Part shown: one piece after another, positions 16,701 to 51,686 of the stretch
How positions within the stretch are numbered: the first letter of the stretch is position 1
How the letters are laid out: each line of letters opens with the position of its first letter
DNA from: a virus
Lineage: Duplodnaviria > Caudoviricetes
Direction: 5' to 3' (one strand)
DNA: 57,366 nt
Virus record (IMG/VR): IMGVR_UViG_3300025543_000028
Span: 1 to 57,366 of that record
Position numbers and translations under genes: made by a program
Notes under the pieces: model-generated
Told to the model about the DNA's origin: nothing
The model's input: only the letters and a program-made list of their open reading frames with translations
Database searches by the model: none

Positions 16701-19700
16701 CTTTACCGTATGCTACGTGTACTTTTTTAGTTGCAGCTCTCACTGAAGCGTCTTGATGGTCATAAAACACGTTTATACTACCTATTTTTTGTTTAGCTGC
16801 AGTTGCAGTAACTGCTTCTTTATCAAGTTCGTTTTGAACACCAAAAAATCTACCATCATAACCTCTAAGACCAGTACTAACGTCAAATGAATACTTATCC
16901 ATTTCTACGTTTATATCAAACTGTTTGTCGTTTAAATTAGCTAGTGAGAATGAATTAACACCCTTTACTAAACCTTTCTTTACGGCTTCAGAGTTGTAAG
17001 CTATAACACTGTGATTATCAAGGCCTTTAGATTTGTAGTAGGCCTCTCTAGATTTCATCTTTGTATATATACCTTTCAGAACACCTTTAACTTTATTGTC
17101 TAATACAATAGTGTGTCCTTTAAAGTAAAATTGATTTGCAGACAAACCAATATGTGATGCCATTCTTTTGTTGTCATAATTACGTCCTGCACCAACTAAT
17201 TTAAAAGAGCCTTGAACTCCAGACATACCTCCGTAAGAAGCCATCATTCTTTGAGCTTCGTCAATAGTAACAAAAGATGCAGAATCAGCTGTTTTAGGAT
17301 TAAGCTCTATTTCTTTTAACTTTCCAGTTTCGTAGTCGATTACCTTAACCTTTTGTTTCTGGTCTTCAAATGATATTTTTTCGTCATCAAAAACCAAAGG
17401 CTCAACTCTTCTACCTCCAAACAACTTATCATGTGGGGCTATAAATAATGTAGACCTTTTATTTTTCTCTGAATAGTTTGATTCTTCACCTACAAAAGAG
17501 TTTAAATCTTGCAACCAATACTTATTCAGTGTATAGTGTAAAGAAGCAATAGCTTGACTATAGTCTAGGTCAAGAGCCTCCATCATTTCTACATGAGTAT
17601 TTGTGTCTAAAACATCATATATCTTACCATCTATAGTTTGTTGAAAAGCTAAGTCACCTAATAGGTTAAGCTCTCCTTTAACTGTAGATACAGATTTACC
17701 ATATCCTTTAATGTCATAGGTTTTTGATAAGAAGTCTATTGTTTTTTGACTAGCAACTTTAAACAAATCAAAATCTGAATCACTATTGTGGTTATCTATA
17801 ACTTGTTTCGTTTTAGCATTATGATAAGCTCTAACTTCTGCAAGCTTTTTTTGCAAGTCTTTAGTAGTTGATTTTATCCAACCTTTAATAAATTTCTTTT
17901 CTAATTTTTTTTGTTCTGCACGTGCGTTTTTTATTTCTTTGTTATTAGAATAAGCTCCTGCATATAAATTAGAGTCTATTTCCATATATCTATTGTAATC
18001 AAGACCATTTTTTTTCTTGACTACATTATTAAAATAATTTCCATACGAAGTCCTTTTTGCAACTGATATAAAGGCTTTAGCATAGTATCGTCTAGATTTG
18101 TCTGAGAAATCTCGTATTACTTGCATGTAAGAAGTATTGCCTTCTTTAATTGCTTTAGATATAGCTTTTATATCGCTTCTAGTTATTTCGTCTGCTTGTA
18201 TGTTATCTCTATCTTTACCTGTTGCAATACTACCATCTAAAGATGTGTATTCAAGTTTGTAAGAGTTGTCCATCATTCCAGCAGCATAAGGATTTACAAT
18301 ATCTCCTTCTGTAAACATGTTAGAAAAATCGTCAAAGTTGTTGACAACCATATCGTTAAGCAAGTCTTTATTGTACTCTAAGAAGTACTTTCTTGTGTTT
18401 TTGTTTAAAGTATTACCTTCTGGTGTCTTTATATTAGACATGTACAGATTGTTATTTTCACTTTGATATGTTGCAATAACAGCCTTAGCTGATTTTTTAT
18501 GACCTTGCAGATTGTTAAGCGATAAATCTATAAAGCCTTTTTGATTAGCTCTAATATTAATAGAGGCTCTAATTGGCTTATTCCAAGTTTTTTCAGAATA
18601 CTGCAACCATAAACCTTCTTCCCCTATAGCTTCTATTTCAAAATATTCTAAAACTTCAGGTAAAGTCATGCTTGAATCTAAACCTAAAAAGTTTAGTGCG
18701 TTTCTTAAACTTGTTTCAGAATTTGTATCAATCTTAGCTGACTTAATACGAGCAACGACATCGTCTTTTGCAACTAAGCCATTGTATATTTCATCAGCTT
18801 TTGGTGAAAATATTCTTGATTGTGTATTCAGTTTTGTTACATAATTAGGCTTACCATGTTTAGCTACACTAAATCGTTCTGTGTTTTGATAAGCAAATCT
18901 AAAATTGTTTAAAAACTTTTCTTCAGCTATAGCTAAATTTTCAGGGCTAATAGAAATTCTCTTACCACCTTTGATTGCTGGAGAATTTTTAAATACAGCT
19001 CTAAACACTTCGGTCATAGCTTTGTCTTTATACGCCTGACCTGATTCTTTTGCAGTTTTACCAGCTATAGTTTTCCAAGACATGTCTTCTCCTTGAGGAA
19101 ATTGTATTGTCATAGAGTCAAACAGTAGTTGTTCAATTCTATTGTTAGAAAAATAATTTCTTAAAGAAACATTAGAGTCTGTATCGACATCATAAACCAT
19201 AAAATCATCAAGGTTTTCGTATGTAAAAGCATACCCATTACCTTGAGAATTATTTTGATTCATAGGTAGGAAATATGTATTTATAAACTCTAACAATTGA
19301 GTGTCTCCTATGTTATCGCTATATAAAAGTTCAGCAGCACTTTGAGAGTATTTCATTCTCTTTTGATAAGTGTACATAGCCGCCTTATCATCTCTACTTA
19401 ACTCGTTTTTAGAAAATTGGAATCCACTTAAGAAACTTAAAGTTTGTTTTAACCTTGTAGTTCCTGGCTTTATAGTGTCAATGTCAAGCATTAAAGTATA
19501 GTCTAATGCACTTTGTATACTTCTTGCAGCTTCTCTACTTGTTGTGTATCCAAAGCCATCAGTGGTAATGAACATACTTTTTTCAGTAACCATAGAATCA
19601 AGTTGCAAATAAGCTCCTTGCAAAGCAGTACCATATAGTTTGGTGCTACCCATTCTGCTATAAGGCGTCGTATAAGGTATTATATCTAGTTCTGAAGTTA

Positions 19701-22700
19701 AATAAGTAAAAAAGCTTCCTAATATTGCATCTTGTCGAGTTAGTTTTGCAGAGCTACCTTTTAGATATTCTTCAATTTTACCCCAAGACTTTTCAACAAA
19801 TTCATCACTACTACGTGTTTCGTCTTTAAAATTTCTTAATATAGTAAGTAAGTTGTCTTTAGTAACACCTGAACCTCCTTGTGAATTGTTTTCTCTACGT
19901 ACATAGAAGTCTATTACTGTAGAAAATTGTTCAGATATACCTTTAGGGTCTGCTCCTATTAAATCAGAAAAAGTATCATCAGCTGTTAATTCTTCTGTAT
20001 ACTCGACAGGCCCTTCTACTTTTACAAATTGCTCAAGGTTTTTAAACTTTTGAGACAAATCGTTTATCTCCGCACTATCTAAATTAATTAAAACTTGCTC
20101 TGTTTTTTGTGCTATTTTATTTTTTAAAGCTTGTTTGTGTGCATTAAGTATATGTTTCTTAATTTTCTTATGCTCACTTAGCAGTATTGTTTTTGCTATA
20201 TTATAATCAGGCGAGCCTACATACGTTTCTTGAGCGTATTTACCAAGCAACGTACTTGCAACTTGTTTATAGGTTTTTTGTACGCTAGACTGTAAATTTA
20301 TAGAGTCTTCTATAAACTCTTTTAAACCTTCTTCATTATCAAGTTTAGCTTTGTCCATTAAGGCATCGAAACTTGTTTTAGCAAATTCTTCAGCATATAA
20401 CTTAGCTTGACTTTCAGAACCATTAATTATGTTAATAGCTTCTTTAGTAATAGCTTTACGCTTATTATATTTTTTAGTTTGTGCAGCCTGTGTACTAGCG
20501 TACTCACCATAATTTGCCTCATTCTTACGAACTACATCATTAATTTTAGCAAATAAAGTTTCTAAAGACTCAGTACCTTTACGAGTTTTGCTTGGGTCAT
20601 ATAAATCTTTTGATATAACTTGGAATGCAGATTGTGCTTCTTCCTCTGTAATAGAACCTCTTATCATTTCTTTAAACGATTTCATGCCATCGTTAAAGTC
20701 TTTCTTAGCTTGTCCTTGTATAAATATGTCTTGATTAACCGAACCGTATAAACCACCTAGTTTTGCTAATGCTTCGTCTTGTATATGTACTTGCTTACTT
20801 CCTGCAAGTTCAACAAAACCAGCTTCGTTAAATAAAATTAAAGAAGCCTCATAAAAAGCTTTCTTTGTTTCATCGTTATTTGCTAAACCATTTTCTCTTA
20901 TATAGTCTGCATATTTCGTTATAACTGGAAATAAACTACCTTGACCATTAGATTCTTGTATTCTTTTTAATAGAGTTAATGCTTCTTTTTGGGTAAGAGT
21001 TCTCATTTTACCAGTACCATCAGGCACTGCGTATAAAATGTTTTCTTGATAATCGAGCTTCATCTTCTTGTACACAGGTTGATGTACAACAGCTCTCATC
21101 ATCTTCATTACTTCTTTAGTCTTACCATATAGCATTCTAAATATATGGAAGTTCTCGTGGAACAATGCCTCTTCTGGGCTATCTGTAGACGCTGATGGGT
21201 TAATAAACACACCCATACCCATAGCATAAGCTGCGGCAGTCTCACCGTGTGAATATATTTCATCTAAAAACTGTATAGATATAATACCATCTACAGCTTT
21301 CTTTGCATATAAATTAGCTAGAGTTCTATCTGAACCACCACCCATTCTAATTGTACGTCTGACTTTTCTTCGCATAGCAGCAGCTTCAATAGCATTAACT
21401 ATTTTTACTGCTTTCTCTTTATTAAAAAACGCTTTCGCAAACTTTAAAGCTATATCTCTAACTAATAAAGCAGAGTCTTTAATGTTTTTTCCATTTAGAT
21501 AAGAAGGTATTTTAATCTTAGGCTTATCCTTCTTGTCTTCTTCTTTTTTGTCTTCAGTTTTATCTTCAGTCTTATCTTCTTCAGCCTCTTCTTTTGCTTC
21601 TTCTTTCTGTTTTTCTTCTTGTTTTTCTTTTTCTAGTTTTTCCTTCTCTAAGAGGTCTTTTTCAACTTCATCTACTACCTCATCAATTCTACCAGAAGTC
21701 TTCTCTATCGAGCCGTCAGGGTTTAAGGTTACAGTGCTAACACTACCTTCTTTCTTGTTTTCTTTAACAAACACATAAGTGCCGTCTTTTGTCTGTGATT
21801 TATCTAAAGTATAGCCTTCCATGTCGTCACCCATTTCGGACTCCACTTTTTCATAAGCTTCTTTTGTATCTTGCTCTGCTTTTTCAGCCTTATAAAACTC
21901 TTTTGACAATTCACTATCATCAATCAAAGCTTTCTCTTCATCAGTCAGCTCTTCACCTCTTTTTTCTTTTGCTACTATTTCTTTAAGCTTAGGTGCTTTA
22001 TCTGATATAAAGTCTTTCGTTTCCTTACGCTTTTCAGACTCTCTATATACTTCGTCTATATTTTCTTTAGCACCTTTAATAAGTTCTTCTTGTGCTGCTA
22101 ACGATGACTCGGCTAACTTCTTAAGACCTTCTATTTGTTTCTTACCTGACTTCTCTTTGATGTCTCCATCTTTAATGCTTTGCTCTATAGATGCTATCTT
22201 AGCTTCAATACCTTCTCTCTGTTGTGCTAGTCTTTTCTTACTTGTTTGCAACAACCAAGAGTTAGCAACAAGCTTAGATTTACCCATGTTATCTAAATCA
22301 TGAGTTGGTTTACCTTCCATAGCTGTTTCAACCTCCTTAAGAGTATCTTTAAATGTAGTGTGTTGCTCTTCTGTTATATTACCTTGTTGGTATTGTTGTT
22401 CAAAAAAGTCTAGTACTACTTCTTGGTCTCCTTCCTTAACAGCATTCATTGCCATATTGTAAGCTGCTGAGTCTCTCATAAACTCTACTGCTTCATCTGC
22501 TGACAACTCTTCTATTACTTCTTTTTGCTCTGTACCTATTACTACTCCTTGTTCATTCTTTTTATTAACTGTAACTTGTCGTTTAACAGTAAACTTTCCA
22601 TTACCTAAGTCTTTAGTAAACGCAGACACATACTGGTGTGTTTCGTTTCTATTATCTATAGACTTCTGCATTAAGCTTCTGTTTTCTGTGGCTGTACGTA

Positions 22701-24000
22701 TTGTGTTAGATGTACCTGACATGATAAGACTAGTCGCAAAAGACAAAACTCTTGTTGGTCTTTGTTCATCAGCTAAAAAGAAATCTAAATAATCAGGAAA
22801 GTCTTGACCCTTCTGTTCTGCTATTCTTCTTTGTATTGCCCAATCTTGATAAACCTCTTGAAATTGTTCTACTACACCATCAGTGACACCTTGAGCAGCA
22901 CCCATTCCTATAGCTTTAAAAGAGTTTTTAATTACATTCTTTATACCAGGTGCTTTTAATGCACTTGCTCCTGTTTTCACAGCTGCTTTTCCTGCAACGC
23001 CTGCAACTGTTTTAGCAGTACTTGTGCCAGCAAATTTAGCACCTAGTTTTTTTGCACTATTAAGCGCACCCTTACCTATACCCATTTGACCCATAAATAG
23101 TCCATACTGAACTATATCAGCCGCCATAGAAGCTAAGTTATCTGTGTATACTAAGTGTGCAGCATTCATTGCCTCACGCTCTGTAAGGCCTTGCTTTACA
23201 CCTTCGTTTAATGTTTGCCCTGCTAGTGCAGCACCTTCTATAAGGTTAGCTGTAGCACCTGCTCCTGTAGTAGCCATTCCAGTTTGTATTAAACCTCTAG
23301 CAGCTAATGAAGAACTGTATTTTTTTATACCTAAAGATGAAGCACCCTTTGCTATCGCTTTTGATGACTTTAAAAACTTTGCACCTTTTGTAACTGCAGA
23401 TATACCTTTAGCTGCATATGTTGCAGGAACCATTAATGACAATGCAAATGGTATCATACGAGCTACACCTGTAGCCCAAAAATCAACATCTGCTAAATCA
23501 TCCCATGTAACATTCTCTAAGTCATTTAAACCAGGAACATCGTCACCAAATGAATGCAAGTAATCTGCAAAATTATGTAACGAATCTGAAATAGGTTTAG
23601 ACGTATCTGTACCAAAGACTTGTTTAGACACGTCGCTAGATACACTACCCCCCATAAAATCAGCTATGTCTCCAAAGCTGTCAACCATATCACCAACACC
23701 AACAACAAAAGACTTTCCAGCCATTTCTATGAAACCCATGTTTTCATCAATCTCAACTGGGTTAACAGGGTCTGCATAAGAAGCGTCTGTGAGTGCAGAC
23801 TGCATTGGAGATTCGTCTTCAGGTCTCATCCAAACAGGCATAGGAACGTCTGTTCCTTGAAAGTGTATGCCGTCTGATGTAGGTGGAGTTTTAAAGCTGC
23901 TATCTAACTCTTTATCATATTGCTCTATACCTTGTTCAGGTGTTTGATTGTTCCAATATTCGTTAGATTGTTGTTCAATAGGATTCGTTTTTTCAGCCAT
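10726..24000 (-). CDS. Giant virion-packaged DNA-dependent RNA polymerase (crAss-like two-barrel RNAP) with zincin-like domain
   Basis: 4424 aa. ATRIP...IIGADLDGDML matches the RxP..DxDGD catalytic pattern (motif at 16168-16188). HENFH HExxH motif at 21145-21159. Ala/Gly-rich hydrophobic N-terminus. Lies beside cargo genes, as in phi14:2 and crAss001. Confidence 0.88.
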   Translation of the reverse strand: MAEKTNPIEQQSNEYWNNQTPEQGIEQYDKELDSSFKTPPTSDGIHFQGTDVPMPVWMRPEDESPMQSALTDASYADPVNPVEIDENMGFIEMAGKSFVVGVGDMVDSFGDIADFMGGSVSSDVSKQVFGTDTSKPISDSLHNFADYLHSFGDDVPGLNDLENVTWDDLADVDFWATGVARMIPFALSLMVPATYAAKGISAVTKGAKFLKSSKAIAKGASSLGIKKYSSSLAARGLIQTGMATTGAGATANLIEGAALAGQTLNEGVKQGLTEREAMNAAHLVYTDNLASMAADIVQYGLFMGQMGIGKGALNSAKKLGAKFAGTSTAKTVAGVAGKAAVKTGASALKAPGIKNVIKNSFKAIGMGAAQGVTDGVVEQFQEVYQDWAIQRRIAEQKGQDFPDYLDFFLADEQRPTRVLSFATSLIMSGTSNTIRTATENRSLMQKSIDNRNETHQYVSAFTKDLGNGKFTVKRQVTVNKKNEQGVVIGTEQKEVIEELSADEAVEFMRDSAAYNMAMNAVKEGDQEVVLDFFEQQYQQGNITEEQHTTFKDTLKEVETAMEGKPTHDLDNMGKSKLVANSWLLQTSKKRLAQQREGIEAKIASIEQSIKDGDIKEKSGKKQIEGLKKLAESSLAAQEELIKGAKENIDEVYRESEKRKETKDFISDKAPKLKEIVAKEKRGEELTDEEKALIDDSELSKEFYKAEKAEQDTKEAYEKVESEMGDDMEGYTLDKSQTKDGTYVFVKENKKEGSVSTVTLNPDGSIEKTSGRIDEVVDEVEKDLLEKEKLEKEKQEEKQKEEAKEEAEEDKTEDKTEDKKEEDKKDKPKIKIPSYLNGKNIKDSALLVRDIALKFAKAFFNKEKAVKIVNAIEAAAMRRKVRRTIRMGGGSDRTLANLYAKKAVDGIISIQFLDEIYSHGETAAAYAMGMGVFINPSASTDSPEEALFHENFHIFRMLYGKTKEVMKMMRAVVHQPVYKKMKLDYQENILYAVPDGTGKMRTLTQKEALTLLKRIQESNGQGSLFPVITKYADYIRENGLANNDETKKAFYEASLILFNEAGFVELAGSKQVHIQDEALAKLGGLYGSVNQDIFIQGQAKKDFNDGMKSFKEMIRGSITEEEAQSAFQVISKDLYDPSKTRKGTESLETLFAKINDVVRKNEANYGEYASTQAAQTKKYNKRKAITKEAINIINGSESQAKLYAEEFAKTSFDALMDKAKLDNEEGLKEFIEDSINLQSSVQKTYKQVASTLLGKYAQETYVGSPDYNIAKTILLSEHKKIKKHILNAHKQALKNKIAQKTEQVLINLDSAEINDLSQKFKNLEQFVKVEGPVEYTEELTADDTFSDLIGADPKGISEQFSTVIDFYVRRENNSQGGSGVTKDNLLTILRNFKDETRSSDEFVEKSWGKIEEYLKGSSAKLTRQDAILGSFFTYLTSELDIIPYTTPYSRMGSTKLYGTALQGAYLQLDSMVTEKSMFITTDGFGYTTSREAARSIQSALDYTLMLDIDTIKPGTTRLKQTLSFLSGFQFSKNELSRDDKAAMYTYQKRMKYSQSAAELLYSDNIGDTQLLEFINTYFLPMNQNNSQGNGYAFTYENLDDFMVYDVDTDSNVSLRNYFSNNRIEQLLFDSMTIQFPQGEDMSWKTIAGKTAKESGQAYKDKAMTEVFRAVFKNSPAIKGGKRISISPENLAIAEEKFLNNFRFAYQNTERFSVAKHGKPNYVTKLNTQSRIFSPKADEIYNGLVAKDDVVARIKSAKIDTNSETSLRNALNFLGLDSSMTLPEVLEYFEIEAIGEEGLWLQYSEKTWNKPIRASINIRANQKGFIDLSLNNLQGHKKSAKAVIATYQSENNNLYMSNIKTPEGNTLNKNTRKYFLEYNKDLLNDMVVNNFDDFSNMFTEGDIVNPYAAGMMDNSYKLEYTSLDGSIATGKDRDNIQADEITRSDIKAISKAIKEGNTSYMQVIRDFSDKSRRYYAKAFISVAKRTSYGNYFNNVVKKKNGLDYNRYMEIDSNLYAGAYSNNKEIKNARAEQKKLEKKFIKGWIKSTTKDLQKKLAEVRAYHNAKTKQVIDNHNSDSDFDLFKVASQKTIDFLSKTYDIKGYGKSVSTVKGELNLLGDLAFQQTIDGKIYDVLDTNTHVEMMEALDLDYSQAIASLHYTLNKYWLQDLNSFVGEESNYSEKNKRSTLFIAPHDKLFGGRRVEPLVFDDEKISFEDQKQKVKVIDYETGKLKEIELNPKTADSASFVTIDEAQRMMASYGGMSGVQGSFKLVGAGRNYDNKRMASHIGLSANQFYFKGHTIVLDNKVKGVLKGIYTKMKSREAYYKSKGLDNHSVIAYNSEAVKKGLVKGVNSFSLANLNDKQFDINVEMDKYSFDVSTGLRGYDGRFFGVQNELDKEAVTATAAKQKIGSINVFYDHQDASVRAATKKVHVAYGKALDLQYKDNLEGYSFEGLAKQDLNASSMPPAIRAMFSQGYMSLPAMKDAAYQIASSKIKKNQKLRTKGTLSIQETDLIEGHEIKDGKLIETDDTLKPTSVEEVNGEMVVEHAEAIVSGHMARKLGVKEGDLFLATRIPASSAGSTMVMKVKKISKKSGNTIAISSKSSEIIGADLDGDMLHINVLDKSKKLSEIAQAKNDFIQSIIDLYSMPETINMLTQIIEFDKNIAEPSNMALYGNKEGSTDINNDLSILGANNTFATSKGNVPMIGNIAAQNLTFSYIAQNNPRLFFEFSEDQKNPITIKTKSNRKGFTNLSNTINRDGKGTFYELCNYLNLILDDGKYGNRAKFQFVKSTASQFITLIKYGMKPAEISLFLKEVNFASFDNMETSEVKELTERAAHDLFRDKYPGSKYTPSVNEIIQEIFVLNGSLEFDLAAMTDKQSPFYKKEGYNKEALLFNHVMKQVSQDILNLSLFVSLDKRFNVDTISGLFEHQEAVAALNRQEDIEKTQSNNPVFSNFRDKNYKLIKQSLDESTQLNNGYSKGLLGDFTIDEVITTDNDGILNSERALAPKQSETDPDVYLPINIYSDFDDVASNADKNKNIVKALNFGRMLIHSNYDVETELNKLHEEMLGEESPLSDWATSSVELKMFNLFDMAYTKISDDVQANKYKGNKWLDRENGILKIRPRTSFVTNSKGVISQVNNYDVSIDVEKVSKQLEFVEQVDLYKKDFAKLSPKMKTLLVLTDFLNTGWGSKNSGTSMIPYMDNNTISKIDNYYKKVQNNEDVSTFDGDMEILKDRLSDKVNFTGIPAVDNRRIAAILNLMVNGVDAQSRTIKETGEVVAYNSYNGLYPTYSKSLNQGGFANESSFTKDLHHKTEISSRTGIELTSKKDGYVYKKSEYQFKQNTSWPQLAITTLSKEIANDKNSVESFITYEDRNALIDEIQNDLKNEQNKKYLKVPTHGTQNYGAVGEKMNKRDYYKTLLEQLVREGKSNVRKLSDLNQNEIDQLEKQYKVYEKSVEFIKGLYTQDKDLFNNSTYKLNYKDKANSFSALKLKMNAVSEAYKELRDEIKSKRIALGKENYNVDPIAAASLIQYMQYKFSEHITEYQIADWENKHGKSFVEEITKPNSELRKKDIGLLDLIWSPGDFGKSKPAIAYINKELKGTHMTFTRNISLMTEEMNGKLDALYKEKFGDGMRSKGIALMKKYIPFGTLSYDEILFGNFFSFNDRDRKGIKKTINKDGEVTYRDVSNLELKSIFFFSRGKFANSHELKSDEFLTKSKDKGGAGLSKAELDYLKMYVKYTNFYRNMIEAKNLYKANKGAAYIPNINSSTWETLHRRGLYGMYFQMSKGDEDFQDIKITAINPITNQEETLDYFSWKAIYMHAPGEKFTVYRPQKTKRGVTMVSREETSLQQMTALERRKGFNEIKSKAKSIWEARKDDNGDFVKIPSALNQLMNLESETVINRSLHRRSMSSAYLATFNMHKALSNYNRLMMFQHGNQYKDKNGVYHHLSWAGDDGFEVVNPISPDTFPLAFSGFNEKLGEVDAAISSLEIKDNNPNAFKYLEKVVKGGLIKKEKNLTWTDSPYKILNQQPEKVVVNFFTQWTMYVALGLNFSAAAGNVLIGKFNAYRQAGGKALLKGEARFWGLNKDTAYNPSDREKARKMISTFGILTYRAEEVAEGIGGSSLSSLFFGPMVLAENWIQQASFLGNLEQEQWDSYFINKDGELEHKSDKKGITETERLEWVEKSADFKKRTGKNLKLTKEDVASLERKVIDVQGRGYSETDIRYIQLYSLGNMVMQFKRWLPTFFADRLRREDVNDLGDMTIGSMVASRDFLVKMWTEGKMSNPKEFKKAYNALPKHRQEAVTRFYNGTTATTLAALLYALVLHGTDDDEWDDTEKMMEKFLGDTMLMVNVPKLIYMTNIPATDTMENLALAISHGIAGTEYQRKAKYGDKGDAKAMAHFARLMPASLRSVLETGSAGKSNRKLN

Positions 24001-45580: not shown

Positions 45581-45596
45581 TGCTAATCCTTCCCGA
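45581..45596 (+). promoter_or_regulatory. Repeated early motif copy 1 (TGCTAATCCTTCCCGA), candidate phage-RNAP promoter
   Basis: Near-identical copies at 45858 and 46341, each intergenic and upstream of an early ORF. Confidence 0.55.
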
Positions 45597-45648
45597 TATT
45601 AAATAACGTAGTACTAAGCTACGTTAGTTAACTTAAACTTATTAAGAC

Positions 45649-45857: not shown

Positions 45858-45873
45858 TGTTAATCCTTCCTGA
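45858..45873 (+). promoter_or_regulatory. Repeated early motif copy 2 (TGTTAATCCTTCCTGA)
   Basis: Matches copies 1 and 3; intergenic, upstream of 45900. Confidence 0.55.
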
Positions 45874-45899
45874 TTTTAATTAACTTAAATTGATAAGAC

Positions 45900-46130
45900 A
45901 TGTACGACTTCAAAATCCTTCACGACAAAGCTGTTAATATTCAAAAGAAAATTAACCAATGGAAACATAGCTTTAGCGTGAAGCATCAGTCCACCATAGC
46001 GTGCCCTCATAAAGAAGGCTTCGTTATCGTAACCTTGTTGTTAATCCCTAAAGCGAAAGCAGAGGACAAACCAACAACGGAAACAAAGACTGTAACGGAA
46101 ACGAGAACTGTAGACGAAGCCCCATTCTAG
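45900..46130 (+). CDS. Hypothetical early protein with SSB-like C-terminal tail (DEAPF)
   Basis: 76 aa with a TETKTV/TETRTV 18-bp duplication before DEAPF. Confidence 0.7.
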   Translation: MYDFKILHDKAVNIQKKINQWKHSFSVKHQSTIACPHKEGFVIVTLLLIPKAKAEDKPTTETKTVTETRTVDEAPF

Positions 46131-46145
46131 GGTTTCGTTTTACTT
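46113..46145 (+). terminator. Intrinsic terminator overlapping the stop of 45900..46130
   Basis: GACGAAGCCC-CATTCTA-GGGTTTCGTT followed by TTACTT. Confidence 0.6.
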
Positions 46146-46340
46146 GTTCACTATCATGATGCGTAGTACTACAGCGTTATACATAGTATGCATCGTTATT
46201 TCTGTGTGTGTCCTTGTGTGTAGAACACATCCACAGCGTCTATTTGTGCGTCTAAAATGTTTGTCTTGTTGTTGTGTGTGTTGCGTAATGCGTTGTCTTA
46301 CAACAGTTTGGGTTAAAAATTAAGACGGAAAAGTGCTTCT

Positions 46341-46356
46341 TGTTAATCCTTCCCGT
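46341..46356 (+). promoter_or_regulatory. Repeated early motif copy 3 (TGTTAATCCTTCCCGT)
   Basis: Matches copies 1 and 2. Its 3' part can pair with AAGACGGAAAAG at 46322-46333. Confidence 0.5.
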
Positions 46357-46425
46357 CTTTATTTAACAATCTTCTATTTATTTAGATGATTGCGTAGCTT
46401 AATGGGTATTAAACCACTTACCCAC

Positions 46426-46456: not shown

Positions 46457-46538
46457 GTCGCAGTTGATAGCGCGACAGTCTCATGTATTATTTATTTAAA
46501 CGATTAATAGTGGTACAATATATTAAAAACTTATACAT

Positions 46539-47231
46539 ATGTTTACAATTCCTAAAACAGCAAAATCTACTTTTGCTAAATCGCCATTGAAATTAAACGT
46601 AGCAGTTGACAACCTCAACTCTACCGTTGCAAAGTTTACAGACGGTACTTACGATATATATTCCGACGGAGTGTATGTCAAGACAGCACCACAAGCTAAA
46701 CTAAACTTAGTATTTCCTGATTTATCTAACGATAACAATCAAGTATACTTTGACTTGCGTTTCAATGGTTTGACAATTATGGATATTCAGACTTACATTT
46801 ATTTCTATGAATTACGTGACCGTCTTGTAGAGTCTTCTGAAACTAAATACATTCAGGAAGCTATTCAACACCTAACATCAGTTCACAAAATAGATGATGT
46901 ACCAACAGCATCGATATTTCACAATGCCGACGGTACACCAATGTATACTCTTAAAGAGTTTCGTGACACATTCGAGTTGCCATCCTCTACGAGTAAACTA
47001 TACTCAATATTACGTGAGAACAGTACTGAATTCCTTAGACACGATTTACAAGGCTCACTATTAGGCAAGCAACTTATAGTTAAATCTTATTTCAACGATA
47101 AGCTAAATAACTACACAATTTGCTCACCTAATCACAAGCCTAGAGTATCTCAACGTCAAGAAGAACAAGACGTACCTGTAGCGAAAGCTTACAGCCGTCG
47201 ACGTGCTCAAGTTGGTAACCCTTTCGCATAA
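46539..47231 (+). CDS. Hypothetical early protein
   Basis: 230 aa with an A-rich leader, followed by a terminator. No family recognised. Confidence 0.8.
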   Translation: MFTIPKTAKSTFAKSPLKLNVAVDNLNSTVAKFTDGTYDIYSDGVYVKTAPQAKLNLVFPDLSNDNNQVYFDLRFNGLTIMDIQTYIYFYELRDRLVESSETKYIQEAIQHLTSVHKIDDVPTASIFHNADGTPMYTLKEFRDTFELPSSTSKLYSILRENSTEFLRHDLQGSLLGKQLIVKSYFNDKLNNYTICSPNHKPRVSQRQEEQDVPVAKAYSRRRAQVGNPFA

Positions 47232-47235
47232 TCAT

Positions 47236-47260
47236 GGCGAGGGGGTGACCCCTTGTTTTT
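47236..47260 (+). terminator. Intrinsic terminator
   Basis: GGCGAGGGG-GTGA-CCCCTTGTT-TTT with a GNRA loop. Confidence 0.8.
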
Positions 47261-47309
47261 GTCACTATCACTATGCAGCGTATACATAGTCTAGAGTTTA
47301 ATATATTAA

Positions 47310-47612
47310 TTAACATCCTTGCGCAGGATGAGCGGTATGATGCACCGTGCAACCCCAAGCACCCAAGAAAGCAACCTCTAGGAACAATAAGTGTTGTATC
47401 ATGACTAATAGGAAAGACTATTACGGCACAATCTCTTGTTTAAAGTAACAGTTATGTCTAATGGGATATACAGTTGCATGAGATACACCTAAACATGTGT
47501 TTAAACTGTTTATTTTTTATTAAAAGCAGGTAGCAAAGTGTGAAACTCACTTGTAGCGTCATATAGCTAACTCAGGTTACATTCCTGAAGCGATATATGA
47601 ACCTGCTTATTT
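47310..47612 (+). ncRNA. Putative structured RNA region (hairpins, multibranch element, pseudoknot, three-way junction)
   Basis: No credible plus-strand ORF. Visible stems include CATCCT/AGGATG, TAATAG/CTATTA, GCAAC/GTTGC, AAGCAGGT/ACCTGCTT and TCAGG/CCTGA. Confidence 0.45.
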
Positions 47613-47722
47613 TTAATTAACTAACTAAATTGAAAGCAAAATGGCTGGATTAGTACCAACGCGAAACGTACGCAAACAAATACGTCAAGAAGAGGCATGA
47701 AAGAAACACTGCATACAGAGAA

Positions 47723-47833
47723 ATGATTAGTACACCTGAAGGTATTGCTAATTATATTGAAACTACCAACAATATAGGTAGAAAGCAAATGCAGTTTTTA
47801 GTAAATCTGCAGAAAAAACTAGTAAAGAAATAG
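47723..47833 (+). CDS. Micro-ORF (36 aa), last of three ATGA-coupled micro-ORFs starting at 47641
   Basis: Translates to MISTPEGIANYIETTNNIGRKQMQFLVNLQKKLVKK. Below the track size cut-off. Confidence 0.4.
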   Translation: MISTPEGIANYIETTNNIGRKQMQFLVNLQKKLVKK

Positions 47834-47919
47834 GGTTGTATCGTTAGAGGGTATACCCTGACCTAAGCATGTCATAAACTGCTTATTTATTAACTATTAA
47901 TCATTAAAACTTGTCAAAA

Positions 47920-48324
47920 ATGGCTAGAAAAACATTATCAAAAGTAGAAGTGGAGAGTATCAAAAAACTTATGGTTGAATCCATGAGAAAGAACAAAATA
48001 TTTGTTCCTTACGGAGTTGCTGGTAAGACTAAATTACCAAAAAAACCTAATGATATACCACAAAGTATGGTAACATACAAGAATAAAATATACATGGCTG
48101 CATATAAGATGCATTGGAAGAACAATAGTAAAGCAGTATCTGCTCAACCTAATTATGTAGTAGGAACTAAGCATGTTGTTGCACCTGTTAACAAACAGAA
48201 AGCAAGAACAACAAGAGTGGCACAACCAGACACTTCACAACCTGTTATTATTACATACAGTAATGGTACAGTAGTGAACATCAATCCTAATGGTCCAATC
48301 ACTGTAAACTTTAAAACCACATAA
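47920..48324 (+). CDS. Basic hypothetical protein (ATG 47920 preferred over TTG 47911)
   Basis: About 134 aa, K-rich, with an A-rich leader. Confidence 0.7.
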   Translation: MARKTLSKVEVESIKKLMVESMRKNKIFVPYGVAGKTKLPKKPNDIPQSMVTYKNKIYMAAYKMHWKNNSKAVSAQPNYVVGTKHVVAPVNKQKARTTRVAQPDTSQPVIITYSNGTVVNINPNGPITVNFKTT

Positions 48325-48325
48325 G

Positions 48326-48493
48326 ATGGATGAAACTATGATACAGCTTATAGCTATGAAAGATGCTCAAATTCAAGCACTTACAAAAGCTAATGATGAA
48401 TTAAATTCTAAATTAGAATTAGTTAGCTCTAATACTAGAATCCTTTTAGAAAAAGTTAAAGTACTTTACCCAGGTATATTCGATGAAGACTAA
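48326..48493 (+). CDS. Small coiled-coil protein (55 aa; not in the track)
   Basis: MDETMIQLIAMKDAQIQALTKANDELNSKLELVSSNTRILLEKVKVLYPGIFDED fills the gap between its neighbours. Confidence 0.65.
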   Translation: MDETMIQLIAMKDAQIQALTKANDELNSKLELVSSNTRILLEKVKVLYPGIFDED

Positions 48494-48938
48494 AATAGGA
48501 TTAGGTAGTATAATGGTATGTGATGAAGACTTAACTGTACTAGTAACTAAGCAATCAGATATTGAAAGCATGAGTGAAAGAACAGTTTTGTTTTCTAACC
48601 ACATATCAGGTAGAGATTATTCATTTACCGAAGACGAGATTCAAAGATGTACTAACTTTTCAGATGCGTACAAAATTGACATTACATACAAAGATGATAA
48701 CGTAATAGAATCAGTATGTAAATATATAACAGCAGAATTTTTTGACTGTCGTACAGACACAAATACGCTGCTACTTTCAGACAATAATATGTTTAGGTTA
48801 TTATCTATTGTGAAGATGCACGCAAGTGAAATCAAAACATTTATTAACAAAGACAGATTAGACTTATTCAAAGCAAAACATAATCTATCAGATGCACAGT
48901 ATGACGAAATACAACAGCACTTTCAAGCTATTAGTTGA
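48483..48938 (+). CDS. Hypothetical protein
   Basis: 151-aa ORF in the operon. Confidence 0.7.
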   Translation: MKTKIGLGSIMVCDEDLTVLVTKQSDIESMSERTVLFSNHISGRDYSFTEDEIQRCTNFSDAYKIDITYKDDNVIESVCKYITAEFFDCRTDTNTLLLSDNNMFRLLSIVKMHASEIKTFINKDRLDLFKAKHNLSDAQYDEIQQHFQAIS

Positions 48939-49122
48939 TTACATCAACAGCCTTGGACATAAACCTAGTACATATACTATACTAAGGCATCATGAATGTG
49001 AAGAGTTTCACTTGTACAACAAAGGAGACTTCATTGAATGTATACCTGTAGATGGTTTTTATTCAAGTGTTACATTACAAGCAATTAAAAGATTTATGTT
49101 TAGACATAGACAAATCAATTAA
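48892..49122 (+). CDS. Hypothetical protein
   Basis: 76-aa ORF filling the gap before the GATase. Start uncertain (ATG 48892 or 48901). Confidence 0.55.
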   Translation: MHSMTKYNSTFKLLVDYINSLGHKPSTYTILRHHECEEFHLYNKGDFIECIPVDGFYSSVTLQAIKRFMFRHRQIN

Positions 49123-49141: not shown

Positions 49142-50107
49142 ATGTGTGGAATCACAGCATACTCTGGTAAGAGTGTAAATATACTAAAGGCAATGCACTT
49201 GTTAAACGACAACGACAGCCGAGGCGGACACAGCACAGGATTGTACGCAGAGAACGGTAGCTTTAAAAAGCTATACAAAACAACAGAAGAAAGCCACAAC
49301 TTACTTAGAATGATTGAACATAATAAGTGTGAACTATTCATAGGTCATACACGTTATGCAACTCACGGTAAAAAGACTGCTACCAACAGTCATCCATATG
49401 TAATCGATAAGTATATCGGTTGCCACAATGGTGTATTGAGTAACTATGAAAAGTTGTGCAAGGACAATGGTATTACACCACCTGATGTAGACAGTAAAGC
49501 TATCTATGAAATGCTATCTAAGACAAATGATTATCAAAGTCTTGGCATGCATGGTGGTACTATCAATGCAGTGTGGACTGAGCGTGATGGTAGATTGTAT
49601 GTATACAGAAGAAACAACCCGTTGTTTATGTTAGACACAGGTGATGGTGTATACTTTTCATCTCTTGAAGCAGGTCTATTAGACATAGCTGATGGTAATA
49701 AAGTAGTAGAAGTCCCTAAGAATGTATTGTTTGTATACAATCAAGGTATTCTTGACGCTGAACTTGACATTCCTGTAACATATGTTGAACCTGTTGGCAA
49801 GAAAGTTATGAACTGGACTGACTATCAAGTAGATAACACGAAAGAAACTACATACGATGCAGGGTATTGGACTAACAGCTATGCTAAAGCACCTGTTAAA
49901 GATGAGCCTGAGCATATAACCATTATAAGAACACAACTTAACGTGTGTGAAATGATATACTGGGAAGCCGACCACTTCTTTGAAAAGTTTGAGCTAGAAG
50001 CTATTGATGCTTTACGTTTAAAACTTGAAGATGAATTGGAAGCAGCAAATCAACAAGCTCAGTACGAAGAAGTGATGAAATCTAATCAATTAACAGCACC
50101 ATTTTAA
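49142..50107 (+). CDS. Class II (Ntn) glutamine amidotransferase
   Basis: MCGI with the N-terminal Cys nucleophile, plus RG..STG, GHTRYATHG, NSHPY, HNGVL.N, VDS and RRNNPL. Confidence 0.92.
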   Translation: MCGITAYSGKSVNILKAMHLLNDNDSRGGHSTGLYAENGSFKKLYKTTEESHNLLRMIEHNKCELFIGHTRYATHGKKTATNSHPYVIDKYIGCHNGVLSNYEKLCKDNGITPPDVDSKAIYEMLSKTNDYQSLGMHGGTINAVWTERDGRLYVYRRNNPLFMLDTGDGVYFSSLEAGLLDIADGNKVVEVPKNVLFVYNQGILDAELDIPVTYVEPVGKKVMNWTDYQVDNTKETTYDAGYWTNSYAKAPVKDEPEHITIIRTQLNVCEMIYWEADHFFEKFELEAIDALRLKLEDELEAANQQAQYEEVMKSNQLTAPF

Positions 50108-50274
50108 TGAACAGTAACATGGAAAAGAACCTTGTCTTTGTATCTGATACTCAGTACATTGACGAGGTCCTCACCTCTACTAGGAGATTGAGAGAGCGCG
50201 CTATTAATAAGGAAGATGTTGATGTAGTTATTAACAAACTTGTAAACATTAAGAAGTTATGCCAGAAGAAATAG
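50107..50274 (+). CDS. Small helical protein (55 aa; not in the track) between GATase and amidoligase
   Basis: TAATG coupling to the GATase stop. Translates to MNSNMEKNLVFVSDTQYIDEVLTSTRRLRERAINKEDVDVVINKLVNIKKLCQKK. Confidence 0.6.
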   Translation: MNSNMEKNLVFVSDTQYIDEVLTSTRRLRERAINKEDVDVVINKLVNIKKLCQKK

Positions 50275-51686
50275 ATGTTAGTAGTATACTAAATGAAGAA
50301 GTAAGTGGTGATGTGTTAGACATGTCAACATTTGACGACACTGAGCAAGATGACAACATGTGTATAATAACGGTAGGAAGTGTTGAGATAAACGTAGAAC
50401 GTAGTTTTACATATCGTGGAGAAGGTAATGAGCTTGACGAAGATTGTTTCGAAACAGAAGACATGATTGAGTTTGCTAAAGAACATGAATATGGTTTCAT
50501 ACAAGGTTCATGGCAATCATGTAGTGAAGATATTGTATATGCAGAATACAGTGATGAGTATATCGAGCAACGTGAAGCTGTATACGGTTATATTAATAGA
50601 CATGACCTAGGATACTTTCACCATACTGAAGACTATGTACGAGTTGGTGACGAAGCATATGCAGATACAGGTATAGCTAATGAACATGATATATACTACT
50701 ATGATTGTTGTGATGAGTACTGTCATATGGACGACCACCATTGCTCTGATGATGATGATGATGACTGTTACTTTGATAACATAGTAAGCTCTCATAAATC
50801 AGATTCATTAGATGTTAAGAAACGTTATGGTACAGATAGCCCTACATATTCTATTACTAACGGTATGCGTTATACATTCGGTGTAGAGATAGAAACAAGT
50901 AGAGGTAACCTATATGAACGTGATTACTTAAATCTTAAATCTGTATACGATGGTTCAACAAGTGGCCCTGAGTATGTTACAGGCGTTCTTAAAGGTGACT
51001 ACGGCTTTAATCATCTCAAAGATATATGCAACGCAATTGCAGAAGACCATGAGATTAATAAACGTTGTGGTATTCATGTACACGTCGGTGGTATATTCAA
51101 TAGGCTGTTCACTATCATGCTCTTACGTCTAGGTCATCAACTTCAAGATGATATTTATCGTATGATGCCACCTTCTAGGCTTGGTAATACATACTGTAAA
51201 TACATTCCTGATTATGTAATGGATATAAACCTTACTAATTGGCGTAAGCACTTAGGTAAGTACATACACGGTTCTGGTAATGAGTTAAATAAAAACTGTA
51301 ACAAGAAATCACGTCTTGGCTCTTACCCTTCTACACGTTACAGATGGATTAACTGCGTAAACTTTAGTAGTAACAGTGGTAAACCGACAGTAGAGTTCAG
51401 AAATCATGGTGCATCTATGAGTTATGATAAAATACGCAATTGGACGTTGATATGTATGGCTATTGTACGCTATGCAGAAAACAACCAGAAAAGAATATGG
51501 TATAATTTGTCAGAAATTACTCTTAAAGAAGTTATTAGAACATCTTTAGGTGATAATATAGGTGAACAGATTATGAAATATTACGAAAAACGTGTAGCTT
51601 TATTCGCTCATAATTATACAGAAGGTGGTGCTTACTATGATAGGCTGCCATCGGGATACATAAGAAATAGTGAAACAATAGATTAA
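50259..51686 (+). CDS. Putative amidoligase (COOH-NH2 ligase, Amidoligase_2-like) with acidic Cys/His-rich N-terminal extension
   Basis: TFGVEIE, DGS...EYVT, CGIHVHV, RY..IN and TVEFR motifs of the glutamine synthetase-like amidoligase family. Confidence 0.85.
   Translation: MPEEIDVSSILNEEVSGDVLDMSTFDDTEQDDNMCIITVGSVEINVERSFTYRGEGNELDEDCFETEDMIEFAKEHEYGFIQGSWQSCSEDIVYAEYSDEYIEQREAVYGYINRHDLGYFHHTEDYVRVGDEAYADTGIANEHDIYYYDCCDEYCHMDDHHCSDDDDDDCYFDNIVSSHKSDSLDVKKRYGTDSPTYSITNGMRYTFGVEIETSRGNLYERDYLNLKSVYDGSTSGPEYVTGVLKGDYGFNHLKDICNAIAEDHEINKRCGIHVHVGGIFNRLFTIMLLRLGHQLQDDIYRMMPPSRLGNTYCKYIPDYVMDINLTNWRKHLGKYIHGSGNELNKNCNKKSRLGSYPSTRYRWINCVNFSSNSGKPTVEFRNHGASMSYDKIRNWTLICMAIVRYAENNQKRIWYNLSEITLKEVIRTSLGDNIGEQIMKYYEKRVALFAHNYTEGGAYYDRLPSGYIRNSETID

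Follow-up and report, generated by a model that had tools for sequence, protein, structure and literature searches.

Two short, similar segments of a phage genome raise the question of whether they form a conserved RNA structure and what such a structure might do there. The genome is IMG/VR record IMGVR_UViG_3300025543_000028, a contig of 57,366 nt taken whole (hereafter the window, meaning the whole stretch of DNA that was analysed), and each segment can be folded into a compact H-type pseudoknot composed of two stems (S1 and S2), a one-nucleotide loop 1 (L1), a single junction nucleotide and a short loop 3 (L3). A first-pass annotation made from the sequence had reported two copies with compensatory changes in both stems, a 1-nt L1 and a 6-bp S2; its coordinates and letters match the window exactly, and the topology is as described. 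The two elements are instances of a compact H-type pseudoknot family that is found widely in phages and mobile elements, and the fold, strand, distribution and placement of this family can be established by comparison. The parts of the two copies are as follows.

47485–47512, plus strand: pseudoknot copy 1, ACAC-C-TAAACA-T-GTGT-TTAAAC-TGTTTA
47485–47488 with 47497–47500, plus strand: S1 of copy 1, followed by L1 (C47489)
47490–47495 with 47507–47512, plus strand: S2 of copy 1
47496 and 47501–47506, plus strand: junction U and L3 (UUAAAC) of copy 1
47859–47885, plus strand: pseudoknot copy 2, TGAC-C-TAAGCA-T-GTCA-TAAAC-TGCTTA
47859–47862 with 47871–47874, plus strand: S1 of copy 2, followed by L1 (C47863)
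47864–47869 with 47880–47885, plus strand: S2 of copy 2
47870 and 47875–47879, plus strand: junction U and L3 (UAAAC) of copy 2

From the window alone the repeat is not statistically compelling, and the proof is comparative and comes from outside it. The string AACTGYTTAT occurs twice in the window against 1.03 expected, and the folding of neither copy is significantly more stable than that of shuffled sequences (z −0.9 and −1.7). A covariance model, built from an alignment that contains both window copies, recovered copy 2 at 41.5 bits (E 1e-7) and copy 1 at 37.6 bits (E 9e-7) as the only matches in the window, the next best hit scoring 14.1 bits (E 0.17). The L3 of copy 2 is one base shorter than in the relatives L001, L002, L048 and L067, which read UUAAAC, and one more T stands behind 47874 in contigs of the RNA-library runs X13 and X17. 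A candidate third copy, CCTGCTTATTTTT at 47602–47614 (about 47598–47614), was rejected, as it has no loop part and is the 3′ strand of another stem, the one that closes a three-way-junction insert of about 100 nt. DNA near-identical to positions 46500–49000 was not found in the 'phages' collection.

The family element is 28 nt long and reads NNAC-C-URRGCA-U-GUNN-NNAAAC-UGCYYA, with an S1 of 4 bp, a single C as L1, an S2 of 6 bp, one junction U and NNAAAC as L3. Three pattern scans of IMG/VR, each with a different pair of S2 positions left free, matched 63, 105 and at least 118 stretches whose flanks are unrelated. Across 181 unique contexts the free positions were overwhelmingly complementary, with TGAGCA/TGCTCA in 56 and TAAGCA/TGCTTA in 52; variants with a wobble pair were TGGGCA/TGCCTA (G.U, 13) and TAAGTA/TGCTTA (U.G, 9), and the rarer TAAACA/TGTTTA and TAGGCA/TGCCTA occurred 5 times each. 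For the pair count, all 141 distinct elements were aligned to the structure ((((.[[[[[[.))))......]]]]]], including four rows that are probably chance matches of the loosest pattern. The cells of this alignment that should pair do so in 94.8% of cases versus 82.7% in shuffles (0 of 500 reached the observed value), and registers in which the partner strand is slid pair at 19–36%. Changes on both sides of a pair fill 199 cells versus 73 in shuffles, and such double changes affect 7 of the 10 pairs. Pair 2-15 in S1 takes all four Watson–Crick types (GC 68, CG 37, AU 17, UA 13), while pair 7-27 is AU in 72 copies, GC in 50 and GU in 13.

All 141 copies keep pairs A3-U14 and C4-G13 unchanged, and the unpaired L1 C, the junction U and AAAC are invariant in the alignment; the search patterns fixed ACC, TGT, AAAC and parts of S2, so that conservation is overstated at these positions. 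BLAST, which imposes no pattern, found a copy in Proteus phage Myduc with C-G at the otherwise invariant A-U pair of S1. Close relatives of the window (L001, L002 and L048) retain both copies, and the L002 ortholog of copy 1 reads TAAGCA/TGCTTA as against TAAACA/TGTTTA in the window, L001 and L004, with S1 unchanged. This orthologous change and the covariation across 141 copies bear out the compensatory changes proposed earlier for both stems, and the pair of segments stands as a repeated, structured and presumably functional RNA motif.

Because G.U outnumbers A.C on the strand as given, the structure is assigned to that strand: G.U and U.G pairs number 41 there against 14 A.C and C.A, and at two internal variable pairs the counts are 22 G.U and 2 A.C. 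The simplest reading is that the element would act as RNA in the sense transcript, G.T pairing being possible in single-stranded DNA as well. Relative to the neighbouring genes this strand is the sense one: the nearest upstream open reading frame (ORF) lies on the same strand in 125 of 167 cases, on the opposite strand in 7 and is absent in 35. The earlier suggestion that the motif may be undescribed agrees with Rfam 15, which gave no match in the whole window at gathering thresholds and nothing overlapping either copy, preQ1 included, at E values up to 10; in ten other loci only models of the transfer RNA (tRNA) and transfer-messenger RNA (tmRNA) types scored near copies. No description was found in the literature searched, and a 2023 catalogue of 10,006 candidate viral RNAs may list the element (PMC10690425).

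The family is not limited to the two copies of one phage that the first-pass annotation saw. The covariance-model check that it had proposed recovered those two copies, and pattern scans of phage DNA and of bacterial genomes placed the element in hundreds of unrelated phage contigs and many bacterial phyla. A scan of prokaryotes with one genome per species gave 34 stretches with the element, from Saccharibacteria, Parcubacteria, Lachnospiraceae, Lactobacillales, Bacillales, Bacteroidota, Actinobacteria, alpha-, beta- and gamma-proteobacteria, a phytoplasma and Poribacteria. Four cultured phages carry it, namely Latilactobacillus phage TMW 1.1365 P1, Lacticaseibacillus phage P7.1, Clostridium phage phiCT19406B and Proteus phage Myduc, and its letters are nearly unchanged in phages of Firmicutes, Proteobacteria, Bacteroidota, candidate phyla radiation (CPR) bacteria and others. 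Whole contigs of 50–214 kb hold one to three copies, grouped in one region. The Leclercia variant with its flanks had no match in complete E. coli genomes or PLSDB plasmids, and the whole record of the crAss-like phage phi14:2 gave no covariance-model match.

Two genome stretches, from a Veillonella bin (L245, about 570–660) and a Poribacteria genome (L248, about 900–990), have the element between repeated flanks of about 30–35 nt, where it looks like a CRISPR spacer derived from an element-bearing invader. Several Lactobacillales genomes and phage contigs (L229, L242, L244, L034 and L040) have the pseudoknot followed by a TTTTTTATGCAGT...CGTGG..CCACG hairpin block, whose sharing suggests a larger conserved module in one prophage group.

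Copies sit between co-directional genes, at precise distances from gene ends. Measured from the upstream same-strand stop codon (n = 177), the spacing is 5 nt in 26 copies, 6 nt in 20, 4 nt in 1 and 0–3 nt in none, counts that are inflated by related contigs; by unrelated upstream protein clusters, a modal spacing of 5–6 nt is found in 27 of 72 and one of 3–4 nt in 2. Within long intergenic regions the element is closer to the upstream stop in 33 of 50 cases. Same-strand downstream ORFs start most often 20–39 nt after the element (54 of 190 copies), and the next downstream ORF is convergent in 20 of 167. Flanking proteins form 72 clusters upstream and 89 downstream (the latter among 153 proteins). 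Hsp20, RIIB, head proteins and ribonucleotide reductase are represented in them, and no partner gene recurs on either side across the clustered proteins. Hsp20 makes up the largest upstream cluster (29 members); a link to this gene was rejected, as the named pelagiphages and cyanophage that were examined lack the element beside hsp20, and their whole records lack it save for two weak matches in Melnitz (E 0.03–0.06).

Other copies lie at the boundaries of stable RNAs. Eight distinct copies end 0–6 nt before the 5′ end of a tRNA, and 37 of 222 have a tRNA or tmRNA within 1 kb, the other 185 having none near. Five copies occupy the intervening segment of a permuted tmRNA (L006, L017, L063, L113 and L243), and the copy in L006, where the alignment was read, ends 2–3 nt before the 5′ end of the tmRNA coding piece. 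The permuted two-piece tmRNA of L006 spans 2451–2836, and the carriers of such tmRNAs are a Bacteroidaceae bin and phage contigs about 100 kb long; the tag that ARAGORN gives for L006, L017 and L063 is GNVNNIVDYT(N/C)VA, and the Rfam model tmRNA_permuted scores 44.9 bits in L006, just below the 47 bits needed for gathering. The copy in Proteus phage Myduc is flanked by tRNA-Arg and the gene for a CCA-adding enzyme. Pairs of copies bracket a single small ORF of 38–129 aa in eight distinct places, counting the window once (its small ORF is broken) and overlapping loci of one contig once, and tandem copies stand 7 nt apart in two contigs (L193 and L157).

The RNA behind the element is less structured than a distant control (mean −2.9 vs −3.9 kcal/mol over the next 35 nt in 204 copies), and a stable fold of −6 kcal/mol or below is found there in 15% of copies versus 22% of controls. 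The 35 nt before the element are more structured, which lends modest family-level support to the stem that the first-pass annotation had placed before both copies; in the window this stem is a stable conserved hairpin before copy 2 and is weak before copy 1 (z −0.99). The T-rich run reported behind the copies likewise follows both of those in the window, yet it fails as a rule of the family: only about 9 of 35 tails are T-rich in the genome set, which was found without a T constraint, and as a family feature the run is partly an artefact of three of the four patterns having forced T at position +1. In that unbiased set +1 is not conserved, and the 3′ tail does not resemble NCCA. Few of 208 copies have a canonical terminator close by, 2 of them downstream and 6 upstream.

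What might such an element do? Among the options raised earlier (translational operator, nuclease block and ligand sensor), the anatomy favours the nuclease block, and the explanation that we prefer, if tentatively, is that of a protein-independent roadblock or insulator at message boundaries, which would fix or shield RNA ends. The knot would fold in the sense transcript at cistron or RNA boundaries, where the near-invariant ACC, UGU and AAAC and the GC core of S2 would lock the two stems via tertiary contacts. A mechanically robust knot of this kind could act without a dedicated protein and halt or ward off a processive enzyme moving on the RNA, be it an exoribonuclease, a scanning RNase or a ribosome, whereby the ends of the neighbouring RNA would be fixed or protected. 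Applied to the window, this would concern the 134-aa gene behind copy 2, the ORF-poor stretch that leads up to copy 1 and, flanked by the two copies, the small and presumably early cistron. From work on frameshift signals, a spacing of 5 nt corresponds to the reach of a ribosome with a stop codon in its A site. The onset of the observed spacing at 5 nt equals this reach, and the knot would therefore stand at the nearest point to the ORF at which it escapes unwinding, which argues that it must stay folded and that nearness to the terminating ribosome or the ORF end matters. The absence of a dedicated partner gene speaks for this reading, as do the letters shared by phages of unrelated phyla, which suggest a self-contained fold.

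Comparable roadblocks have been reported in eukaryotic RNA viruses. The coremin motif, GUCCGAAGACGUUAAACUAC, is described as stalling Xrn1 and scanning ribosomes and as stimulating −1 frameshifting (PMC6546385, PMC10520033, PMC10321173). As an exoribonuclease-resistant RNA (xrRNA), it is known as xrRNA-C and, in a Watson–Crick variant, as xrRNA-WCC; its sources are eukaryotic RNA viruses, beny- and cucumoviruses among them (Dilweg et al., PMC6546385, PMC10520033, PMC10321173). By that account its hairpin 1 has 3–5 bp, the closing pair, C-G, being sequence-specific and the loop taking the form YGAD (4 nt) or YGNNAD (6 nt) (PMC6546385). A conserved 8–10-nt spacer, GUUAAACUAC, with essential A16–A20 is said to follow, and a hairpin 2 directly downstream to be needed for Xrn1 resistance; in xrRNA-WCC, loop nucleotides 6–8 are given as pairing with spacer nucleotides 18–20 in a 3-bp antiparallel S2 with a 1-nt L1.

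Measured against these accounts, the phage element resembles the coremin in its size of about 20–30 nt, its short hairpin with a closing C-G pair and a pyrimidine-first loop, and its intergenic position in multiple or tandem copies; xrRNA-WCC is comparable in its H-type knot, its 1-nt L1 and a loop that pairs past an A-rich spacer. Its S1 of 4 bp and its C4-G13 pair (141 of 141) agree with coremin hairpin 1. The stretch UUAAACU that follows the hairpin is found in both, but AAAC was fixed by all the search patterns, and the base after CU is G in the phage element, not A. The 1-nt L1 is accompanied by an antiparallel S2 that covaries, as in xrRNA-WCC, but S2 has 6 bp and is registered after AAAC, whereas the 3 bp of the coremin variant include the C. 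The 8-nt loop, C-URRGCA-U, departs from the coremin rule in having U rather than G as its second base. There is also a junction U, and the element needs no downstream hairpin: the 35 nt downstream fall below the control in structure, and neither window copy has a hairpin there. The hosts, moreover, are bacteria, without Xrn1. On these sequence features the element is not a coremin.

A folded xrRNA is reported to block the bacterial RNase J1 purely mechanically (PMC5760640). Flaviviral xrRNAs, which from such reports are directional mechanical blocks that often occur in tandem, thus resemble the phage element as protein-independent folds, but they are three-way junctions of about 70 nt with a ring around the 5′ end and are unrelated to it in size and fold. 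The −1 frameshift knots of luteoviruses, of the beet western yellows virus type, are about 28 nt long and have a short L1 with C, an extruded junction U and an A-rich L3 in the minor groove of S1, and they lie 5–8 nt from the A-site codon. The position of the phage element 5–6 nt after a stop codon recalls this spacing, and its invariant unpaired bases and the GC core of S2 would fit loop-groove triples. It differs in having neither a slippery heptamer nor an extended alternative frame, in following unrelated stops and occurring in untranslated tRNA clusters, and in its inverted stem lengths, S1 being short and S2 long.

Several observations weigh against the roadblock. With only one to three copies per contig of 50–214 kb, the element is not a general gene-end device. 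Its carriers include gamma-proteobacterial ones, Proteus phage Myduc and a Leclercia genome, and to our knowledge gamma-proteobacteria have no 5′–3′ exoribonuclease, so that an Xrn1-like target would not be universal; for the same reason the candidate enzymes include 3′–5′ exonucleases, a scanning RNase E and ribosomes. The YGAD loop and the downstream hairpin of the coremin are both lacking. Contexts in messenger RNA hug the upstream stop, and those in tRNA or tmRNA hug the downstream 5′ end, so that the two do not agree on a direction of protection. Neither window copy is found at 5–6 nt: copy 2 begins 25 nt after a stop, and copy 1 follows no clear ORF. Finally, the set of elements was gathered by pattern, and only the positions left free test the pairing.

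Other explanations have to be set beside it. The pseudoknot of T2/T4 gene 32 is of the H type, with a 1-nt L1 spanning an S2 of 6–7 bp, and behind it an unstructured A/U-rich leader runs to a start codon. The catalogue cited above describes this pseudoknot as autoregulatory and as absent from Rfam (PMC10690425). Were the family an operator of this sort, a phage protein that binds RNA or single-stranded DNA would nucleate on the knot, spread and repress the downstream gene, an idea that agrees with the 1-nt L1 and 6-bp S2, with the unstructured A/U-rich leader-like RNA behind the element, with the same-strand ORFs at 20–39 nt in 54 of 190 copies, and with the AUGGCU at which the ORFs behind both window copies begin. 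Gene 32 RNA, however, serves one gene and its own protein, while the phage family has no gene association: its downstream neighbours fall into 89 clusters among 153 proteins with no recurrent partner on either side, the 134-aa protein behind copy 2 matches no Pfam or PHROGs family, and the next ORF can be convergent (20 of 167). The family also precedes tRNAs (eight copies abut them, and five lie in tmRNA precursors) and its position depends on the upstream stop more than on the downstream start, with 27 of 72 clusters 5–6 nt from the stop; its conserved letters are not known in gene 32, and for unrelated phyla to hold the same letters one shared binding protein would be required. The translational operator of the first-pass annotation fits such surroundings poorly, and we consider it unlikely. 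Proximity to tRNAs leads to another thought, that the stack of S2 on S1 (10 bp with a single-stranded 3′ tail) mimics the acceptor/T arm of a tRNA, so that RNase P, RNase Z or the CCA-adding enzyme of the host would cut or mark polycistronic RNA. Pseudoknotted acceptor arms are known from the tRNA-like structures of plant viruses, and the distances of 0–6 nt to eight tRNA 5′ ends and of 2–3 nt to that of a tmRNA piece, which are RNase P sites, speak for it, together with the 37 of 222 copies that have a tRNA or tmRNA within 1 kb and the position in Myduc beside the gene for the CCA-adding enzyme. With 185 of 222 copies away from any tRNA, a 3′ tail that is not NCCA-like, an unconserved +1 in the genome set and a stack of 10 bp rather than 12, both the processing itself and the broader notion of a phage-spread 'tRNA punctuation', like the mitochondrial one and built from a 28-nt pseudoknot, appear improbable.

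The knot might instead act while nascent on RNA polymerase, as a terminator or pause site or in antitermination like HK022 put. A T-rich, G-poor run follows both window copies and many viral ones, copies number one to three per genome in one region, few canonical terminators lie close to copies (of 208, 2 have one downstream and 6 upstream), and RNA polymerase, as a universal target, would suit the conservation of letters across phyla. The T at +1, though, was forced by three of the four patterns, about 9 of 35 tails being T-rich otherwise; copies lie in tRNA clusters and a tmRNA precursor, where termination would be harmful; the A/U-rich S2 (−3.6 to −4.4 kcal/mol) is weak for a terminator; and tandem copies 7 nt apart are unexpected for a polymerase-modifying site. 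A consensus scan for intrinsic terminators (a G+C-rich hairpin with a U tract) calls neither window copy, and a transcription element of this kind is, in our estimate, a poor prospect. Still less can be said for a ligand sensor in the manner of preQ1-I, the smallest known riboswitch and likewise an H-type aptamer with an A-rich L3. The compact fold, the A-rich L3 and the invariant unpaired C and U at the helix junction make a comparable pocket conceivable, but there is no gene association and no expression platform (S2 lies off the ribosome-binding site, with starts 20–40 nt away), the element stands after stops and before tRNAs, and no Rfam model matched it at E values up to 10. A sensor fits poorly with downstream genes so diverse, tRNAs and a tmRNA piece among them, and is very unlikely. 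The least probable account, one that we regard as far-fetched, is a signal in DNA: a promoter, or else a single-strand hairpin that is extruded and serves a virion RNA polymerase as its promoter, as in N4. TGCTTA resembles what we take to be the MotA box of T4, the element lies upstream of genes and tRNAs, and the source phage is crAss-like; the virion polymerase gp66 of the crAss-like phage phi14:2 is reported to act on single-stranded or denatured DNA, and for this phage no early promoter motif is given as known (bioRxiv 10.1101/2020.03.07.982082). Complementarity at seven variable pairs and G.U on the sense strand are unlike the recognition of duplex DNA, however, the family occurs in many unrelated hosts at one to three copies per genome, and elements lie 5–6 nt after stop codons within operons. 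A middle promoter of the MotA-box type was rejected in the window, where TGCTTA is not enriched (41 found vs 62 expected), and so was the middle promoter of phi14:2, a tripartite motif with −35/−10-like blocks, which upstream of g070, g075, g108 and g110 reads TTG...TAnnTTTG and is unlike the element.

At 28 nt, the element is among the smallest conserved structured RNAs, and its precise placement points to a general mechanism by which RNA segments in bacteria are defined, insulated or protected. If the roadblock reading is correct, the family may be the first class of exoribonuclease- or ribosome-stopping RNA of DNA phages, convergent with or related to coremin knots. The concept of xrRNA would then reach from eukaryotic RNA viruses to DNA phages, and synthetic biology would gain a very small insulator or stabiliser part. 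The cultured carriers TMW 1.1365 P1, P7.1 and Myduc make the question directly testable.

The phage from which the window derives is a divergent crAss-like phage, as judged from a Pfam Crass_capsid match (E 2.5e-27) in a capsid protein about 25% identical to those of crAss-like phages. Its minus strand carries the structural genes up to about 45.4 kb, and small plus-strand ORFs lie beyond. Both pseudoknot copies are within this block of small ORFs, which by analogy with other crAss-like phages would be the early region. A 4424-aa ORF at 10726–24000 on the minus strand has no PHROGs match and no DFDxD motif, a polymerase motif that is absent from the four longest minus-strand ORFs of the window; by these two checks its divergence is too great for it to be called a crAss-type virion RNA polymerase, and we make no claim about such a polymerase. 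The immediate surroundings of the two copies comprise the following features.

47513–47530, plus strand: U/A-rich run after copy 1, evident from the sequence
47642–47833, plus strand: small ORF between the two pseudoknots, its stop codon 25 nt before copy 2
47833–47858, plus strand: stem-loop directly upstream of copy 2, beginning at the small ORF's stop codon, in both the minimum free energy and the centroid structure of RNAfold
47886–47919, plus strand: U/A-rich unstructured spacer from copy 2 to the ATG of the 134-aa ORF
47920–48324, plus strand: 134-aa ORF downstream of copy 2, its ATG 34 nt after that copy

The ORF-poor stretch that copy 1 closes is about 220 nt long and begins behind a terminator-like site (47240–47254); this site and another at 46112–46140 are the ones called by the terminator consensus scan. 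The gap between the stop codon of the small ORF and copy 2 is filled by the stable hairpin (about 47831–47860), which is kept in L001, L002, L048 and L067; S1 of the pseudoknot would face competition from the two outermost pairs predicted for this hairpin. The small ORF is intact in relatives (64–67 aa), and that of the window is divided by a gap of 2 nt behind 47697 into pieces of 19 and 36 aa; contigs of runs X9 and X17 have GT at this point, and the gap is either an assembly error or a real frameshift. Homologues of the 134-aa protein in L001 and L002 are 84–91% identical and retain the pseudoknot upstream.

Evidence from RNA consists of Logan contigs of RNA libraries, which cover late genes too, so that carry-over of DNA is possible and ends are unreadable. 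One piece from run X17 spans 47513–47892, starting right after copy 1 and stopping 7 nt past copy 2; another from X17 stops at 47451, with adapter letters after it, and a piece from X13 stops at 47453, while other pieces bridge both copies. From these contigs, which come from two studies, no conclusion is drawn.

The same region holds further repeats and structures. A second repeat family, TGYTAATCCTTCCYG...TTWAWTAAC, has three plus-strand copies that are 85% identical (45581–45607, 45858–45884 and 46341–46367), two of them shortly upstream of small ORFs on that strand and the third at the end of an ORF-poor stretch; this repeat probably serves the presumed early region as a promoter or regulatory site. 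Both terminator-like sites are followed on the plus strand by a TCACTATCA...AGCGT(T)ATACATAGT motif (46146–46195 and 47262–47292), and each motif heads an ORF-poor stretch of about 200 nt. In the second of these stretches a core at 47316–47370 (GCGCAGGATGAGCGGTA...CCGTGCAACCCCAAG) is kept in L001, L002 and L004, and RNA-library contigs start at 47264 (X11 and X13, from one sample) and stop at 47451–47453 (X13 and X17, from two studies), which is weak evidence. The ORF-poor stretches are candidate small RNAs. The insert of about 100 nt at 47517–47613 on the plus strand is seen relative to L001, L002 and L004 and is common to L048; it is predicted to fold as a three-way junction (z −3.7), with AAGCAGGU/ACCUGCUU as the closing stem and AUUUUU behind it. 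A form that skips 47367–47603 is seen in contigs of runs X9 and X11. Further along the plus strand, the adjacent genes at 49142–51686 encode a protein with a class-II glutamine amidotransferase domain and an Amidoligase_2 protein, a pairing known from predicted peptide- or metabolite-modifying systems.

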